Below, in pieces: positions 3,407 through 10,671 of a stretch of DNA of 64,000 nucleotides. The DNA lies in assembly GCA_947630765.1 (NCBI GenBank), contig CANRIX010000001.1:26399-90398 (forward strand), given 5' to 3'. This DNA comes from an uncultured Clostridia bacterium (GTDB taxonomy: Bacteria; Bacillota; Clostridia; Oscillospirales; CAG-382). Positions within the stretch are counted from its first letter, which is position 1. Each line of letters opens with the position of its first letter. Position numbers and translations under genes: made by a program. The notes beneath the pieces were generated by a model. It saw only the letters and a list, made by a program, of their open reading frames with translations. It made no database searches and was not told where the DNA came from.

Positions 3407-4764
3407 CAGTTCTTCAGCGAATGGATCGGGGCGGGGATCAGGCCGCCGCGCGAAATGAAGCGGCTCGGGTCGGCCCGGTTGATCCGCATGACCGGCGCGT
3501 CCCCCAAAAGTCCGCCGAAGGAAAGGGATTCGCCTTCCTTTTTTCCGATGGCGGGAATGACGCGGACCGCCGTCGTCTTGGTATTCGCCACGCCGATGGA
3601 CAGCTCGTCCGCGATCAGCGCGGAAATGACCGCGGCGGACGTGTCGCCGGGGATCGCGATCATATCCAGCCCCACCGAGCAGACCGCCGTCATCGCTTCC
3701 AGCTTTTCGACGGTCAGACAGCCGCTTTTCGCGGCGGCGATCATGCCTTCGTCCTCGGACACGGGAATGAACGCCCCGGAAAGCCCGCCGACCCGCGAGG
3801 ACGCCATGACGCCGCCCTTCTTGACCGCGTCGTTGAGCAGCGCCAGTGCCGCCGTCGTCCCGCAGCCGCCGCAGCAGCCGACGCCCATCGCCTCTAAAAT
3901 CCGTGCGACCGAATCGCCGACGGCAGGCGTGGGCGCGAGGGACAAATCGACGATCCCGAAGGGGACGCCGAGCCGCCTGCTCGCTTCCCCCGCGATCAAC
4001 TGCCCCATGCGGGTGATTTTGAAGGCGGTTTTCTTGATGACCTCGGCAAGCTCCTCAAACGGGGCGTCCGGGCATTTTTCGATCGCCGCGCACACCACGC
4101 CGGGACCCGAGACTCCGACGTTGATCACACAGTCGCCCTCGCCGACGCCGTGGAACGCGCCCGCCATGAACGGGTTGTCCTCCGGCGCGTTGGCGAACAC
4201 GACCAGCTTCGCAGCACCGATGCACTGCTTGTCCTGCGTCAGTTCCGCCGTCCGGCGAATAATCTGCCCCATGCGGGCGACCGCGTCCATGTTCAGCCCC
4301 GCCTTGGTCGTCGCCGCGTTGACGGATGCGCAGACCCGCTCGGTGGACGAGAGCGCTTCGGGGATCGTGTCGATCAGGATGCGTTCGGATTCCGTCGCCC
4401 CCTTCGGCACCAGTGCGGTGTAGCCGCCGATGAAATTGATTCCGAGCGTTTCCGCCGCACGGTCCAGCGCACGGGCGATCCGCAGGAATCCCTCGGCGTC
4501 CTGCCCGGCGCCGACCAGCGAGATCGGCGTGACGGACACCCGTTTGTTGACGATCGGGATGCCGTATTCCCGTTCCAGCTCTTCGCCGACCCGAACGAGG
4601 TGCTCGGCACGGGTGGTGACGGTATCGTAGATGCGGTCCTCAAGACCCGTCGGTTCGCCCCCCGCACAGCGCAGGAGGGAGATCCCCATCGTGACAGTGC
4701 GGATATCGAGGTGCTCGGTTTCGATCATGCGGACGGTTTCGAGAATATCGTTGGTATTCAGCAT
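3406..4764 (-). CDS. UPF0210 / DUF711 family protein (function unknown)
   Basis: 452-aa ORF with the family-typical N-terminus [31 protein letters not shown]. Lies immediately downstream of its usual small ACT-domain partner. Confidence 0.75.
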
Positions 4765-4782
4765 ATGGAAGCCCCTTTCCGC

Positions 4783-5052
4783 TCAGATGCGGTGCATGGA
4801 GTTGAAAACGTCCTCGTGCATGGCGTGGATCTTCAGCCCGTTCTTCTCCGCGAGCTTTTCAAGCTCGTCCGCGAATGCGCCGAACGGGGTACGCATGCGG
4901 TCGAGGTCCACGAGCATCATCATCGCGAAGTATTCCTGCATGACCGTCTGCGAAATATCGACGATATTCGCCCCGTGCTCGGTGCAGAGCGCGGACACCG
5001 CCGCGATGATCCCCATGCTGTCCTTCCCGGTAACCGTAATAACTGCTTTCAT
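4783..5052 (-). CDS. ACT domain-containing protein (UPF0237-like)
   Basis: Start moved to MKAVITVTGKDSMGIIAAVSALCTEHGANIVDISQ (M24 of the track ORF). About 89 aa with an ACT beta-alpha-beta start. Paired with the UPF0210 gene. Confidence 0.7.
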   Translation of the reverse strand: MKAVITVTGKDSMGIIAAVSALCTEHGANIVDISQTVMQEYFAMMMLVDLDRMRTPFGAFADELEKLAEKNGLKIHAMHEDVFNSMHRI

Positions 5053-5191
5053 CTGTTCAGAACTGTCCTTTCCAATCGTTGCGATTACGCATAGTATACA
5101 CAATTTTCCGAAAAAAAGCAAGGTCTTTCCGAAAAAAGCGGTGTTTTTCCGCAGATTTTCCGTCGCAGGGGAGGCTTTTTTCGAAAAAAGA

Positions 5192-5220
5192 TTGACAATC
5201 CCGGGAAAGAATGGTATACT
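5192..5220 (+). promoter_or_regulatory. sigma-A-type promoter of the GT2 operon
   Basis: TTGACA (5192-5197), 17-nt spacer, TATACT (5215-5220), about 60 nt upstream of the ATG at 5282. Confidence 0.6.
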
Positions 5221-5281
5221 GATACACGGATTATTTTGCGAAGACCGCGAAATCGACCGTCAATTTCTATTGGAGGTTCCT

Positions 5282-6553
5282 ATGCAGACCGCAAGAACGG
5301 TAATCACCATTATCGAAATTGTTTTAACTGTTTTCTTCGCCCTGCTGTTTGTCTATCAGTTTTTTTATACGTTCTACGTCCTGTTTGCCCGCGAGAAGGA
5401 AAAGCCGTTGCTTCGGAACAAGCAGAACCGCTTCGGCGTGATCATTCCCGCCCGCAACGAGCAGCAGGTCATCGGGCAGCTTATCGACAGTATCCGCAGG
5501 CAGACCTATCCGACCGAGCTGATCCGCATCTTCGTCATCGCGGACAATTGCACGGACGGCACGGCGGAGATCGCGCGGCAGATGGGCGCCTATGTGCTCG
5601 AACGGCAGGACCGGGAGCTCGTCGGCAAGGGGTACGCGCTGGATTACTTTTTCAAGCACCTGCGCGAACGCGGCGACGCCTGCGACGCGTACCTCGTCTT
5701 TGACGCGGACAACCTTCTTGACGAACATTTCATCGAGGAGATGAACAACGGGCTGAACCGCGGGTATCAGGCGCTGACCTCCTACCGCAATTCCAAGAAT
5801 TACGGCACCAACTGGATCTCCGCCGGGTATTCCCTCTGGTTCCTGCGCGAAGCAAAGTACCTGAACAACGCCCGCATGCAGCTCAACACCAGCTGCGCCA
5901 TTTCTGGGACCGGCTTCTGCGTCAGCAGGGAACTGATCGAAAAGAACGGCGGCTGGCCGTTCCACCTCCTGACGGAGGACATGGAATTCACGATCAACAC
6001 CATCGTCAACGGCGGAAAGATCGGCTACTGCGGAAAAGCGATGCTCTACGACGAGCAGCCGGTCAAATTTTCGCAGTCGTGGAACCAACGACTGCGCTGG
6101 GCGAAGGGGTTCTATCAGGTGTTCGGCCGGTACGCCGGGAAGCTGTTCAAGGGCATTCTCCACGGGAGCTTCGCCTGCTACGATATGATGGTGACGATCC
6201 TGCCCGGGATCCTCGGGTTCGCCGTTTCCGTCATCTGCTCGATCGCCGACCTCAGCTTTTGGCTTCTCTATCCCGAAAGCAACAGCCTGCAAAGGGCGAT
6301 CACCATCATGATCATCTTTTTGATCTTCTACTACCTTTTGATGTTCTTCATGGGGCTTTTGACCATGCTGACCGAAGGGGACAATATCAGCGGGTGCTCC
6401 CGCGGACGAAAGCTCTGGTCGATCTTCACGTTCCCGTTCTACATGGCGACGTATCTGCCGATCGCGGTGGTCGCGCTGTTCAAAAAAGTCGGCTGGAAGC
6501 CGATCCAACATACGGTGGCAAAGTCCATCGACGACCTGAGCAAGAAGCAATAA
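5282..6553 (+). CDS. processive family-2 glycosyltransferase (PgaC/IcaA/cellulose-synthase-like polysaccharide synthase)
   Basis: True start MQTARTVITII, preceded by RBS ggagg. The upstream part of track ORF 4631-6553 is antisense to other genes. Motifs VFDADN, HLLTEDMEF (TED) and QRLRWAKG (QxxRW). One N-terminal and several C-terminal TM helices. Confidence 0.85.
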   Translation: MQTARTVITIIEIVLTVFFALLFVYQFFYTFYVLFAREKEKPLLRNKQNRFGVIIPARNEQQVIGQLIDSIRRQTYPTELIRIFVIADNCTDGTAEIARQMGAYVLERQDRELVGKGYALDYFFKHLRERGDACDAYLVFDADNLLDEHFIEEMNNGLNRGYQALTSYRNSKNYGTNWISAGYSLWFLREAKYLNNARMQLNTSCAISGTGFCVSRELIEKNGGWPFHLLTEDMEFTINTIVNGGKIGYCGKAMLYDEQPVKFSQSWNQRLRWAKGFYQVFGRYAGKLFKGILHGSFACYDMMVTILPGILGFAVSVICSIADLSFWLLYPESNSLQRAITIMIIFLIFYYLLMFFMGLLTMLTEGDNISGCSRGRKLWSIFTFPFYMATYLPIAVVALFKKVGWKPIQHTVAKSIDDLSKKQ

Positions 6554-6578
6554 ATTCGGAAAATAGGGGAAACTTTTC

Positions 6579-7832
6579 ATGACGAAACGGATTTTGGCAG
6601 TCTGTGCACTTTTTGCGGTGCTTTGCTGCGGCGTCGCCGCGGTCCTGCCTGCGAATGCGGAAACCGGCTGGACTGCTGCGATTAATATCGAACGGACGGC
6701 GGAGGATACGGAAGCGGGAACGGTGACGGTCCGCGTTTCCGTCGAAGAAATCACCTGTCAAAGCGGGATCTTTCTTGCCGTGTATGACGTGTATTACGAT
6801 ACGTCCTTGCTGGAATTGATTTCCTGGGAAAACGCAAAACCGTCCGGCTGGAACTTCGCCGACGAAACGGCGGAGGACTGGACACATGTCGAGGAAGAGC
6901 CAGAGCCTTACCTTTCCTATACCATCATGAACGCGGGAACGTCGAACGGCGTGAAGCGGAATGGAGAACTGTATACCGACCTGACGTTCAAGGTGCTTTC
7001 GGATACGGCGGAATCCGCGTCCGTCACCGTGCGGAACATCCAATTCGCCGACGTATCCAACGAATCCATGCTGAATCCGTGCACACTGTCGGACCAAACC
7101 TGCGAGATCGGTTTGCACGGCAACGCAAGCACGCCGGTCGTCCCGATCGAGAGCAGCGAGCCGTCCGTTTCGGAAGACGCTTCGACGGCAAGCGAGCCGT
7201 CCGTGAGCGACGAAACCTCGCAAAGCAATTCGACCGTGCAGGGCGACGTCTCGCAGGATCGTGTGCCCGTGCAGGGCGACGCGCCCGTCGACAAAGAGGG
7301 CAATCACCGCATCACGATGTATATTACGGTCGAGGAAATTCGGAACGACACGGGGGTTTCCGGGATCTCCCTGCAGCTGAAATACAACGAGAGCTTCCTG
7401 CAATACCTCTCCCGCACCTGCATTACGCCGGACGGTTGGAGCGACGTGGAGGATCTTTCGACCCCGCCGGACAACGGAAAGATGACCCTATCGGTCGTCT
7501 GTCACGATGTGGGGAACGGTGCAAAGGAGGACGGCTCGCTCGGATTTTTGGTCGAATTTTCGTACAACGGGACGGATTTTGACCAGAGTATCTTCCAAAT
7601 CGAGCAAATTCACCTGACCGATGAATTCGGCAAGGAACTGGATTCGGACAGCTGCCGAGTCACCGTCAGTTACGAGATGGACGATATTCCGATGACGGCG
7701 GAGGACCTACAATTGCCGGATCCGTCGGAGGGAAGCGTTTGGAAGATCCTGCTGGCCGTCGCCGCGTCGGTCGTCGTGCTTAGCGCCGCAGTCGCGGGAT
7801 TCCTGATTTTCAGAAAGAAGAAGATGCTATGA
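6579..7832 (+). CDS. secreted, C-terminally membrane-anchored protein with two cohesin-like domains
   Basis: Signal peptide MTKRILAVCALFAVLCCGVAAVLPANA. Two similar modules (GTVTVRVSVEEITCQSGIFLAVYDVYYDTSLLELISWEN and HRITMYITVEEIRNDTGVSGISLQLKYNESFLQYLSRTC) are separated by an S/E/T-rich linker. C-terminal TM WKILLAVAASVVVLSAAVAGFLIF followed by RKKK. The cohesin assignment rests on pattern recognition only. Confidence 0.6.
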   Translation: MTKRILAVCALFAVLCCGVAAVLPANAETGWTAAINIERTAEDTEAGTVTVRVSVEEITCQSGIFLAVYDVYYDTSLLELISWENAKPSGWNFADETAEDWTHVEEEPEPYLSYTIMNAGTSNGVKRNGELYTDLTFKVLSDTAESASVTVRNIQFADVSNESMLNPCTLSDQTCEIGLHGNASTPVVPIESSEPSVSEDASTASEPSVSDETSQSNSTVQGDVSQDRVPVQGDAPVDKEGNHRITMYITVEEIRNDTGVSGISLQLKYNESFLQYLSRTCITPDGWSDVEDLSTPPDNGKMTLSVVCHDVGNGAKEDGSLGFLVEFSYNGTDFDQSIFQIEQIHLTDEFGKELDSDSCRVTVSYEMDDIPMTAEDLQLPDPSEGSVWKILLAVAASVVVLSAAVAGFLIFRKKKML

Positions 7833-8407
7833 ACCGTCTGCGTGAATTTTGGTCGGCGTATTCCCGAAATATCATCCGTTTCTGGACCAATCAGCTCGTG
7901 ATGTCCTTTCTCGGCATCAGCGTCGGGCTTGCGACGATCGCGTTGAAGAACGAAGCCGTGTCGGCGCTCGGGAGCGCGTTGTGTATCGGGATCCTTTGCT
8001 TCATGCAGTACGACAACCTGTTTCAGCTCGGAGAAAAGCACCATTTTCGCCCGGCGGATGCCAATCGCCCTGCGAAATCGCTCGGGCTGAAGATCGCACT
8101 GCTCGGTTCCTGCCCGCTTTTGCTGGTGATCCTGCTCGGGCTTCTTGTTTCCGTCGTTGCGTCGGACGATGTGCATGTAATTTTCATGCTGATCCATATC
8201 GCCCTGCACGGCAGCTACCTGTATCCGTTGACCTTCCTTTCGGTGGAAGGGACGATCGGCTGGCTGGGCGGACCGCTCGGCTGGCTGGTCTGCCTGCTGT
8301 TCCTGCTGCCGGAGGTACTGTTTGCCGGGCTCGGCTATCTGCTCGGCTCGAAGGATCGCCCGCTTCGCACGTTTTTCGGGATTCGCTACGGCAAAAAAGA
8401 GAAGTGA
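7829..8407 (+). CDS. polytopic membrane protein, function unknown
   Basis: 192-aa ORF whose ATG overlaps the upstream stop (ATGA), suggesting translational coupling. Four to five hydrophobic helices. I recognise no motif. Confidence 0.6.
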   Translation: MNRLREFWSAYSRNIIRFWTNQLVMSFLGISVGLATIALKNEAVSALGSALCIGILCFMQYDNLFQLGEKHHFRPADANRPAKSLGLKIALLGSCPLLLVILLGLLVSVVASDDVHVIFMLIHIALHGSYLYPLTFLSVEGTIGWLGGPLGWLVCLLFLLPEVLFAGLGYLLGSKDRPLRTFFGIRYGKKEK

Positions 8408-8483
8408 ATGGGCAGGGGAGGCATATTGCACAGCACGCTTTCATACCTTGTAATAAAACGCAAGGTGCAAAGGATGTGCGCAT

Positions 8484-9257
8484 ATGGAAACCCCTTCGTC
8501 CTCGGAATTTCGGGAACCGCGGTTCTTTCTGGTGCTTCTCAGTGTCGTGCTGGCCGTCGTGCTGGTGTTCTATTTCATAACGTCCATGGTGACGTCGGTC
8601 GGATACCACGCTTTCGCAGAAGCGGACGCGGAACCGGCAGGGGAGTCGCCCGGATTTACGATCCTCCTCGACGCGGGACACGGCGGAGAGGACCCCGGCG
8701 CGGTCGCCAACGGGCTGAACGAGAAGGATTTGAACCTGCAGATCGCTTTGAAAACCGCCGCATTCCTGCGCCTTTCCGGCTGCAACGTCGTCCTGACGCG
8801 CTCGGAGGACCGCCTGCTGTACAACAGCGGCGAAGAAAAGCGGAAAAAGTATTATGACCTGTATAACCGCCTGAAATGCGCGGAATCATACCCGGATGCG
8901 ATCTTTGTCAGCATCCATATGAACAAGTTTCCGATGGAAAACTGCCAAGGGCTGCAGACGTTTTATTCCGTGAACGACCCGCGCAGCGCTCTGCTCGCGG
9001 AGGCGCTGCAATCGTCCTCGACGCTCGTCATGCCCGACAATCGGCGGACCATCAAGTCGGACAATAAGACCATTTTCCTGCTAAAAAACCTGAAAATGCC
9101 CGCCGTTATCGTCGAATGTGGGTTCCTTTCCAATCCGACCGACGCGGAACACCTTGCGGACAAATCCTACCAGGACGAACTCGCGTTCGCGCTCGCGTCC
9201 GGGATCGGGCGGTACTGCGAAGCGGTGCGGGAGAACGGCGGCGCAGCGTCCCCATAA
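8484..9257 (+). CDS. cwlD: N-acetylmuramoyl-L-alanine amidase, CwlD-like (spore cortex)
   Basis: N-terminal TM segment followed by the amidase_3 block ILLDAGHGGEDPGAV...DLNL...IFVSIHMN...VECGFLSNP. Size and architecture match CwlD. Confidence 0.8.
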   Translation: METPSSSEFREPRFFLVLLSVVLAVVLVFYFITSMVTSVGYHAFAEADAEPAGESPGFTILLDAGHGGEDPGAVANGLNEKDLNLQIALKTAAFLRLSGCNVVLTRSEDRLLYNSGEEKRKKYYDLYNRLKCAESYPDAIFVSIHMNKFPMENCQGLQTFYSVNDPRSALLAEALQSSSTLVMPDNRRTIKSDNKTIFLLKNLKMPAVIVECGFLSNPTDAEHLADKSYQDELAFALASGIGRYCEAVRENGGAASP

Positions 9258-9273
9258 AACGGGAGGAAATAAG

Positions 9274-10671
9274 ATGTTGAAAACCAACTATGTTTGCGAA
9301 AATTGCGGGAATGTGACCGCAAAATGGTACGGAAAATGCCCGTCCTGCGGCGCGTGGAACTCTCTCGCAGAACAGGAAGCCGTCCCGGAACCGGCGCCGT
9401 CGCCGAAGGCGCGCCGTGCGTCCGCCCGCAACAATACCCAGACGGTCGAGCATTCCAAGGCGCTCCGTATCGACGAGATCACCTTCCAAAACGATATTCG
9501 TTTCCTGACCGGGCTCGGCGAATTTGACCGGGTGCTCGGAGGTGGATTGGTCGAGGGTTCGGTCGTGCTGATCTCCGGCGAGCCGGGCATCGGAAAATCC
9601 ACCTTGCTGCTGCAAATTTGCCAGTTTGTGGGGCAAAAAGCGAGGCTTTTATATGTCACCGGCGAGGAATCCATCTCGCAGATCAAGCTGCGTGCGAACC
9701 GCGTCGGCGTCGATACGCAGAACCTGCTCGTTTTGAGTGAAACGTCGGTCAATAAAATCATCCCGGAAATCAACACGGTACAGCCGGATGTGGTGATTAT
9801 CGACTCGATCCAGACCATGTACGACGAGAATTATCCGTCCTCGCCGGGTACGATCACGCAGGTCAAGCAGGCGACCATGCAGTTGATCGCCAAAGCGAAG
9901 GAGGACAAGGTTTCCATTTTGATCGTCGGGCACGTCAATAAGGACGGCGCGATCGCCGGTCCGAAGGTGCTCGAACATATGGTCGACGCCGTGCTCTATT
10001 TTGAAGGCGACAAGCAGCACGCATACCGCATCATCCGTGCGGTCAAGAACCGCTACGGCTCGACCAATGAGATCGGCATGTTTGAAATGTCGGACGACGG
10101 GCTGACAGAGATCGAAAAACCGTCCGAACGCATCCTCCAGCAGCGTCCGAAGGACGTTCCCGGCAACTGTGCGGCGGCGGTCATGGAGGGCAGTCGGCCG
10201 ATGATCACCGAGATCCAGGCGCTTTCCTCCAATACGACGTTTCCGTCGCCCCGCAGAATGTCTTCAGGTTTTGATTATAATCGGCTTTCGCTGCTGCTCG
10301 CAGTCCTTGAGAAACGGATCGGGCTACGCTTCTCGTCGCAGGACGTCTATCTGAATATCGCGGGCGGACTGCGGATCGACGAGCCGGCGTGCGACGCCGC
10401 CGCCGCGATGGCGCTGCTTTCCAGCTATAAGGAGATCCCGGTGCCAGAGGATCTGATCGTCATGGGCGAAGTCGGCCTCGCCGGCGAATGCCGCTCCGTC
10501 AGCGTGCTGGATCAGCGGCTGAGCAATGCCGCACGGCTGGGATTCAAGCGTGCCGCGATCCCGTACCACAACGCGGAACGGTTGAAAAACGCATACGGCA
10601 TGGAGATCATTCGTCTGCGGAGTATTTTCGATTTATTGCGTCTGCTGGACGCGCCAAAGAAGGAAGAATAA
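9274..10671 (+). CDS. radA: DNA repair protein RadA
   Basis: Start MLKTNYVCENCG after RBS gggagg. Zinc ribbon CENCG..CPSCGAWNS, Walker A GEPGIGKSTLLLQ, KNRYG motif, and a Lon-like C-terminal domain. Confidence 0.92.
   Translation: MLKTNYVCENCGNVTAKWYGKCPSCGAWNSLAEQEAVPEPAPSPKARRASARNNTQTVEHSKALRIDEITFQNDIRFLTGLGEFDRVLGGGLVEGSVVLISGEPGIGKSTLLLQICQFVGQKARLLYVTGEESISQIKLRANRVGVDTQNLLVLSETSVNKIIPEINTVQPDVVIIDSIQTMYDENYPSSPGTITQVKQATMQLIAKAKEDKVSILIVGHVNKDGAIAGPKVLEHMVDAVLYFEGDKQHAYRIIRAVKNRYGSTNEIGMFEMSDDGLTEIEKPSERILQQRPKDVPGNCAAAVMEGSRPMITEIQALSSNTTFPSPRRMSSGFDYNRLSLLLAVLEKRIGLRFSSQDVYLNIAGGLRIDEPACDAAAAMALLSSYKEIPVPEDLIVMGEVGLAGECRSVSVLDQRLSNAARLGFKRAAIPYHNAERLKNAYGMEIIRLRSIFDLLRLLDAPKKEE

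Follow-up and report, generated by a model that had tools for sequence, protein, structure and literature searches.

A glycosyltransferase, a two-cohesin membrane protein and a polytopic membrane protein encoded side by side in an uncultured Clostridia bacterium: a probable juxtaposition of separate modules

Between positions 5192 and 8407 of a 64,000-nucleotide stretch of DNA from an uncultured Clostridia bacterium (contig CANRIX010000001.1; the whole stretch is called the window here), three genes for membrane proteins lie tightly packed behind a single promoter-like site. The first (5282-6553, plus strand) encodes an integral membrane glycosyltransferase of family 2 (GT2), 423 amino acids long, as assigned by Pfam matches, motifs and hydropathy. 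The second (6579-7832, plus strand) encodes a secreted, membrane-anchored protein of 417 amino acids with two cohesin modules, recognized by Pfam, by an AlphaFold2 model and by Foldseek. The third (7829-8407, plus strand) encodes a polytopic membrane protein of 192 amino acids from an unannotated family, called TM192 here and defined by profile, synteny and model. The segment is probably best explained as three modules of separate function that came to lie side by side in one lineage: a stand-alone glycosyltransferase, a two-cohesin scaffoldin, and a TM192 protein that goes with the downstream genes cwlD and radA.

An initial annotation of this DNA had proposed something different, a single synthase-dependent exopolysaccharide system in which the three proteins work together. 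Its parts list stands. The promoter-like site and the three packed genes are all found by promoter scanning, Pfam searches and inspection of the gaps and of the ATGA overlap. Its domain calls were right; its functional unit was wrong. The three genes differ from one another both in the genomes that carry them and in what they lie next to; the trio is not a conserved unit. The main value of the analysis is therefore negative, in that what looked like a novel exopolysaccharide machinery including a cohesin protein falls apart when neighborhoods are compared across the genus, the family and the order. The novelty of the region is low to modest.

Gene order in related genomes

The relatives available for comparison are metagenome-assembled genomes (MAGs) of uncultured Clostridia from the guts of rabbit, yak, horse and other herbivores, one of them Candidatus Coliplasma caballi. 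The order seen in the window, an ACT/DUF711 gene and then GT2-cohesin-TM192-cwlD-radA, is kept in metagenome contigs and in six genomes (G001, G024, G012, G008, G222 and G233). In a further genome, G015, about 150 nucleotides separate the GT2 gene from the cohesin gene on one short contig. With the genome that holds the window (G000), these make eight species-level genomes, and adjacency of the GT2 and cohesin genes is found only in them. This is consistent with a single rearrangement in their common ancestor.

Elsewhere, the glycosyltransferase is found alone. Most other species of the genus have a GT2 ortholog (57-59% identity) at a separate locus, directly after the equivalents of two genes that lie at 11-1378 and 1385-2581 in the window, and followed by unrelated genes. 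The second of these is an isocitrate-dehydrogenase-family gene, named by the Iso_dh match of its ortholog. More distant orthologs (47-53% identity), from other families of the order, also stand alone. Conversely, two genomes (G020 and G021) have the cohesin protein and no GT2 ortholog at E<=1e-20.

TM192 has a different distribution again. In a sample of the order comprising 201 genomes from 120 genera, it occurs in 115 genomes and 75 genera, as a single copy in all but one. At 30 of 40 sampled loci its gene lies directly upstream of, and co-directional with, a cwlD-like gene and radA, just as in the window. No GT2 gene is found within 7 kb of any of these 30 loci, and only two, both from this family, have a cohesin gene next to TM192. 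On this positional evidence, TM192 appears to belong with the cwlD-radA block downstream of it. The initial annotation had suggested that the 192-residue protein might serve the synthase as IcaD or PgaD does; searches in Pfam, NCBIfam and PHROG give it no family match, and it nearly always occurs without a GT2 neighbor.

The TM192 family is a lead in its own right, being an unannotated family of about 190 residues conserved directly upstream of cwlD-radA across the order. Its profile matches 237 clusters at 50% identity, nearly all of them 180-215 amino acids long. Invariant residues are QYD (60-62), G68, P81, G86, P96, G128, Y130, W152, P161 and GYxxGxxD (169-176). The structural model has a predicted local distance difference test score (pLDDT) of 84.8, a predicted template-modeling score of 0.80, and five or six membrane helices. 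Foldseek finds no fold match for it in the PDB (best E 0.74), so that the family has neither a structural relative there nor an annotated function in the family libraries.

The neighboring cwlD might suggest that TM192 works only in sporulation, a role that was considered and rejected. SpoIVA is present in this genome and in 184 of the 201 genomes of the order, and a correlation between TM192 and sporulation is therefore uninformative. More telling are two nearly complete, SpoIVA-negative genomes (G022:C4, locus L113; G045:C13, locus L048), in which cwlD is missing from the locus and TM192 is kept directly before radA. As the family is kept even where sporulation genes have been lost, it is not sporulation-specific.

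The cohesin protein has relatives of its own at this locus. Other species of the genus have there, in this order, a large metallophosphoesterase (about 1150 amino acids), a single-cohesin membrane-anchored protein of about 250-285 amino acids, TM192, cwlD and radA. Membrane-anchored single-cohesin proteins with the same kind of C-terminal transmembrane (TM) helix and lysine tail as the protein in the window are found in six genera of the family. They precede TM192 in genera g23, g19 and g1; in g121, g21 and g126 they are not near TM192, cwlD or radA. In g18, a homologous cohesin module is fused to a dockerin. Between this genome and G012, the glycosyltransferases are 77% identical, RadA 78%, CwlD 56%, TM192 52%, and the cohesin proteins 32%. 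By these comparisons, the protein in the window evolves fast and belongs to a class of membrane-anchored cohesin proteins that extends across the family. On the branch of the eight genomes, the metallophosphoesterase gene appears to have been lost and the cohesin protein to have gone from one module to two, on the same branch as the rearrangement that brought GT2 and cohesin genes together.

The large protein that precedes the single-cohesin gene in those relatives (L019:2409-5870; L020:6725-10066, minus strand; L023:6798-10316, minus strand; L130-L132) is secreted and about 1110-1220 amino acids long. Its domains are Ig-like, Metallophos (calcineurin-like phosphoesterase) and Flg_new, followed by a C-terminal membrane anchor of its own. 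A search for it in the genome that holds the window finds none.

These neighborhoods also bear on the alternative that survives best, namely that the cohesin protein and TM192 form a dedicated pair, with TM192 as membrane platform or partner and the glycosyltransferase unrelated to either. The two genes adjoin, with short gaps or an overlap, in g1, g19 and g23. In one MAG (L116:1057-2490; P0061), a single open reading frame (ORF) of 477 amino acids contains both a cohesin-like and a TM192-family domain, along with a membrane anchor, in a topology compatible with such a pair, and is followed by cwlD and radA. This fusion, however, sits on one 6.7-kb contig, and may be either real or the product of a one-base assembly error. 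Further, TM192 is spread over 75 of 120 genera, and outside this family a cohesin gene is missing beside most of its sampled loci. The cohesin proteins of g121, g21 and g126 lie far from TM192, and three genomes (G020, G021 and G006) have a cohesin gene without an adjoining TM192, the two being on different contigs in G021. A dedicated pair is thus an unlikely, though not negligible, explanation.

The two-cohesin protein and the dockerins of its genome

That the middle protein is a cohesin protein, as first proposed from the DNA, is borne out by score and by fold. It matches the Pfam Cohesin family (PF00963) in two stretches, scoring 39.8 bits where the gathering threshold is 24.1, and its homolog in G012 reaches 57.3 bits. 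An AlphaFold2 model built on 16 homologs has two confident beta-sandwiches (pLDDT ~85-95), a disordered linker rich in Ser, Glu and Pro (191-240), and a helix (385-416). Module A comprises residues 29-185 (6663-7133, plus strand), includes a Pfam stretch at 43-173, and is modeled at a pLDDT of ~85-95. Module B, the second beta-sandwich (residues 236-372; 7284-7694, plus strand), matches a clade-tuned cohesin profile with E=5e-43. The two modules are 28% identical.

The best single-module matches of this model in the PDB, by Foldseek, are solved type-I cohesins, with E down to 1e-6 and target-normalized TM-scores (template-modeling scores) of 0.6-0.7. They include ScaB Coh6 of A. cellulolyticus (5nrm), CohA2 of C. 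acetobutylicum (6kgf), and, from C. thermocellum, OlpA (3ul4) and CipA (1aoh, 2ccl). Sequence identity to characterized cohesins is low (15-24%), and a sequence profile of the protein has weak matches in the PDB, which are to cohesins exclusively.

The protein begins with a signal peptide and ends in a C-terminal TM anchor followed by RKKK (residues 385-416; 7731-7826, plus strand), seen both as the helix of the model and as a hydropathy peak at 390-408. The chain ends in RKKKML, and the RKKK tail is kept in 16 of 16 homologs. Neither an SLH domain nor an LPXTG motif is found in it. These features together place it in a membrane-anchored subtype.

What might such a protein hold? The initial annotation had raised the possibility that it recruits dockerin proteins, and a search of the genome indeed finds 20 ORFs above the Dockerin_1 cut-off. 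Domains are confirmed for 14 of these: two NAGPA phosphodiester glycosidases, a GDPD phosphodiesterase, a GDSL esterase, one CAP protein, two S8 subtilases, a BspA-type leucine-rich repeat (LRR) protein of ordinary size and another of 3553 amino acids, a GH25 muramidase, an Amidase_2 protein, a DUF4127 protein, an F5/8-type-C protein, and one protein in which the dockerin is the only recognized domain. Judged by eye, another four look like two further LRR proteins and a second copy of the CAP protein (on two contigs). No cellulase is found among the 14 that were scanned. The genome thus has both the dockerins and the cell-attachment device that an anchoring scaffoldin calls for. Further, the only significant cohesin modules in it (E<=0.001, with Pfam and with the clade-tuned profile) are the two in this gene.

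Across the family, the two domains vary together. Over 61 genomes, matches to the clade cohesin profile correlate with dockerin count (Spearman 0.73; 0.83 over 15 genera). The median count is 16 dockerins in genomes with the cohesin and 2 in those without it (Mann-Whitney p=2e-7, with no phylogenetic correction).

The most likely role of the cohesin protein is therefore that of a bivalent, membrane-tethered anchoring scaffoldin for some 20 dockerin proteins. The signal peptide would direct export, the C-terminal helix would stay in the membrane, and the two divergent cohesins would be displayed outside the cell. There, the dockerin-tagged secreted proteins (phosphodiesterases, esterase, CAP, LRR, subtilase, GH25, amidase and DUF4127) would dock on the two-cohesin anchor.

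The dockerins themselves fall, by eye, into two groups. The major group has a DYMLLKRHVLGTFKL-type repeat; the smaller, divergent group is found on the subtilases, the DUF4127 protein and the giant LRR protein. About 15 dockerins carry near-identical DYMLLKRHVLGT(F/Y)KL repeats, and about five are divergent (those of the two S8 subtilases, DUF4127, the 3553-residue LRR protein and C13). It is possible that the two dockerin groups map onto the two divergent cohesins.

Alternatively, the cohesin-fold modules may bind something else, such as a carbohydrate or a protein, as some non-cellulosomal cohesin-like modules do, with the dockerin proteins attaching elsewhere. Identity of 15-24% to characterized cohesins leaves room for this, and some genera have many dockerins without this type of cohesin. 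In relatives, moreover, the cohesin gene is coupled to that of the large metallophosphoesterase, which has its own anchor and no detected dockerin. However, it would then be odd that a genome of about 20 dockerins holds no other significant cohesin, that cohesin and dockerin numbers co-vary so strongly across the family, and that homologous modules in g18 are fused to dockerins, as in adaptor scaffoldins. Such a role is accordingly improbable.

Anchoring through a membrane helix is not new to scaffoldins. Cohesin scaffoldins with a C-terminal TM anchor have been predicted in other non-cellulolytic Clostridia, among them Lachnoclostridium sp. MSJ-17, H. luporum and C. cibarium (PMC11557425), and likewise Ruminococcus difficilis and Ruminococcus sp. 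HUN007 (bioRxiv 10.64898/2026.02.05.704116). The protein described here therefore adds to a known type. Like it, those scaffoldins come from genomes with tens of dockerin proteins, of which few or none are glycoside hydrolases for plant cell walls. Here, however, two divergent cohesins sit on one anchor, in the sole significant cohesin gene of the genome. The cargo is mostly phosphodiesterases, peptidoglycan hydrolases, proteases, CAP and LRR proteins, and the host is an uncultured, small-genome (2.1 Mb) lineage of spore-former type from the herbivore gut.

A second likeness is to the monovalent anchoring scaffoldins OlpA and OlpC of Clostridium thermocellum (3ul4, 4dh2) and ScaE of Ruminococcus flavefaciens, which rank among the best structural matches of the cohesin protein. 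These are small surface proteins whose type-I-like cohesins fasten dockerin proteins to the cell without an intermediate. Their own attachment is by SLH domains, or to the wall by sortase, and they serve cellulosomes; the protein in the window is membrane-tethered and non-cellulosomal.

What emerges as a lead is that about 20 hydrolases, proteases and adhesin-like proteins, all tagged with dockerins and not cellulolytic as a set, are apparently held by one two-socket membrane anchor. This would make a very compact system in which to study membrane-anchored cohesins.

The glycosyltransferase and the case for a joint function

The glycosyltransferase is of the processive-synthase type, as originally annotated. 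It matches Pfam Glyco_tranf_2_3 (E=6e-25) and Glyco_trans_2_3 (1e-19), and also Glycos_transf_2. Its GT-A domain has DAD at 141-143, invariant in nine orthologs, as well as TED (231-233) and QRLRW (269-273), which do not vary in the ortholog alignment either; these are the DxD, TED and Q(R/Q)xRW motifs of processive membrane enzymes. The domain is flanked, again as in those enzymes, by hydrophobic helices that could form a channel, one on the N-terminal side and three or four on the C-terminal side (peaks at 6-24, ~297-321, 342-360 and 381-399). Against solved structures, a profile of nine orthologs matches best hyaluronan synthase 1 (HAS1; 8smm, 6e-12, query residues 129-359), then BcsA (5e-10), then plant CesA and CslF6, with the HAS1 and BcsA alignments reaching into the first C-terminal helices.

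The closer designation as a PgaC/IcaA/BcsA-like synthase holds only in part. The synthase type is upheld, but the PgaC/IcaA equivalog of NCBIfam (TIGR03937) scores 63.8 bits against a cut-off of 422.3. Other equivalogs are as far under their cut-offs (EpsU, 132 against 700; NodC, 23.6 against 550), and that of CelA is likewise far from reached. The gene has no paralog in the genome.

Among known enzymes, the closest in kind are the stand-alone processive GT2s, such as hyaluronan synthases (8smm), the BcsA catalytic core, NodC and pneumococcal Cps3S. These share a GT-A domain with D, DxD, TED and QxxRW, set between an N-terminal helix and a C-terminal bundle in a chain of about 420 amino acids; the orthologs here are solitary too. 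The protein in the window differs in that it has no PilZ domain and no co-subunit and lies below the equivalog cut-offs just given. Most likely, it would polymerize a sugar from a nucleotide-sugar donor and pass the chain through its own membrane helices, without a dedicated partner.

The proposal that the trio makes and decorates an exopolysaccharide, with the glycosyltransferase as polymerase, TM192 as an IcaD/PgaD-like co-subunit, and the cohesin protein tethering or decorating the polymer, is very unlikely to be right. It draws, of course, on real features. The genes share one promoter, a 25-nucleotide gap and a 4-nucleotide overlap, the arrangement is kept in eight species-level genomes, and the first enzyme is of synthase type. 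As in pga, ica and bcs operons, a synthase-type GT2 is followed in one transcription unit by membrane or secreted proteins. Here, however, the neighboring genes have not been inherited together with the synthase, and neither resembles PgaD, IcaD, BcsB or deacetylases. Across most of the genus, as in other families, orthologs of the glycosyltransferase have neither partner nearby; TM192 goes with cwlD-radA across the order and not with GT2; and the cohesin protein is found in G020 and G021, where no glycosyltransferase ortholog is found at E<=1e-20. Further, because the eight genomes with the trio trace to one rearrangement, they count as one event.

A weaker form of the idea, confined to the sub-clade of eight species, has just as little probability. 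Here, loss of the metallophosphoesterase, doubling of the cohesin module, and the arrival of the glycosyltransferase and its promoter at the head of the operon, all on one branch, may have given rise to real functional coupling. A glycan layer made by the glycosyltransferase may, for example, embed or space the bivalent cohesin scaffold, with TM192 as a shared membrane platform. If true, this would amount to a kind of display system, combining a glycan with cohesins, of which there is no description so far.

Juxtaposition of three separate modules, with the middle one a scaffoldin for dockerins, is still the explanation that best fits the distributions, and several points weigh against it. Tight packing behind one strong promoter, together with the ATGA overlap, makes co-expression possible in this lineage, and with it functional interplay. 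Adjacency of cohesin and TM192 genes in three genera, and their joining in the one 477-residue ORF, point the same way for that pair. As for the scaffoldin role, dockerin binding by these cohesins is a prediction, and the correlation with dockerin number that speaks for it carries no correction for phylogeny. Some genera (g22 and part of g122) have 14-22 dockerins and no match to the clade cohesin profile. Finally, the genome contains a sub-threshold cohesin-like domain (C12:38571-39449, minus strand; Pfam E=0.012), and thus the gene in the window is the sole cohesin gene only at the level of significance.

That domain, which was all that tblastn, module hidden Markov models and the clade profile turned up by way of extra cohesins, forms the N-terminal part of a secreted protein of 292 amino acids with a C-terminal dockerin. 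Its gene overlaps by 8 nucleotides the end of the gene for a 1205-residue GDPD phosphodiesterase-dockerin protein (C12:39442-43059), and lies downstream of it. By its domain make-up, the 292-residue protein is a candidate adaptor scaffoldin.

Promoter, downstream genes and local variation

The promoter-like site ahead of the glycosyltransferase gene (5192-5220, plus strand) is of the sigma-70 type, TTGACA-17-TATACT with a TG before the -10 element and 11 of 12 matches. It is the sole such site in a scan of 4700-9400, and an identical one stands upstream of the ortholog in G001, the closest relative. The gap of 25 nucleotides between the GT2 and cohesin genes holds an AGGGGA ribosome-binding site, and the stop of the cohesin gene overlaps the TM192 start in ATGA (7829-7832). 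The three genes are probably co-transcribed from this promoter.

The packed run does not end at 8407, as had first been thought, but extends through cwlD and radA to make five co-directional genes. After a gap of 76 nucleotides comes the gene for a CwlD-like N-acetylmuramoyl-L-alanine amidase (8484-9257, plus strand; Pfam Amidase_3, 4e-47), which scores 179 bits against the 221.55-bit cut-off of NCBIfam spore_cwlD (TIGR02883). Sixteen nucleotides further lies radA (9274-10671, plus strand), the final gene of the run, identified by synteny and by the Pfam domains of its orthologs and 76-98% identical to those of relatives. No terminator-like site is found in either gap, and transcription from 5192 possibly continues into cwlD-radA.

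The amidase gene may also have a promoter of its own. Between TM192 and cwlD (8422-8449) lies CATATT-14 nt-CATACCTT, which resembles the Bacillus sigma-E promoter consensus. The strict motif is found in this window only; a looser CATATC/CATACCTT form is present in the two closest relatives and absent further out. On the strength of the motif, this is a candidate sporulation promoter for cwlD.

One base 5' of the -35 hexamer of the glycosyltransferase promoter lies a perfect 16-bp palindrome, CTTTTTTCGAAAAAAG (5175-5190), with repeated TTTCCG(AAAAAA) boxes upstream of it (window 5101-5191). The palindrome is a possible operator.

In the branch comprising G012, G008, G222 and G233, the ACT and glycosyltransferase genes are separated by an insert of about 2.2 kb (L015:1271-3359, with equivalents in L016, L093 and L094). 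The promoter region of the glycosyltransferase gene there is therefore unlike that of the window. In G012, the insert contains a membrane-like ORF of 453 amino acids on the minus strand and an ORF of 219 amino acids.

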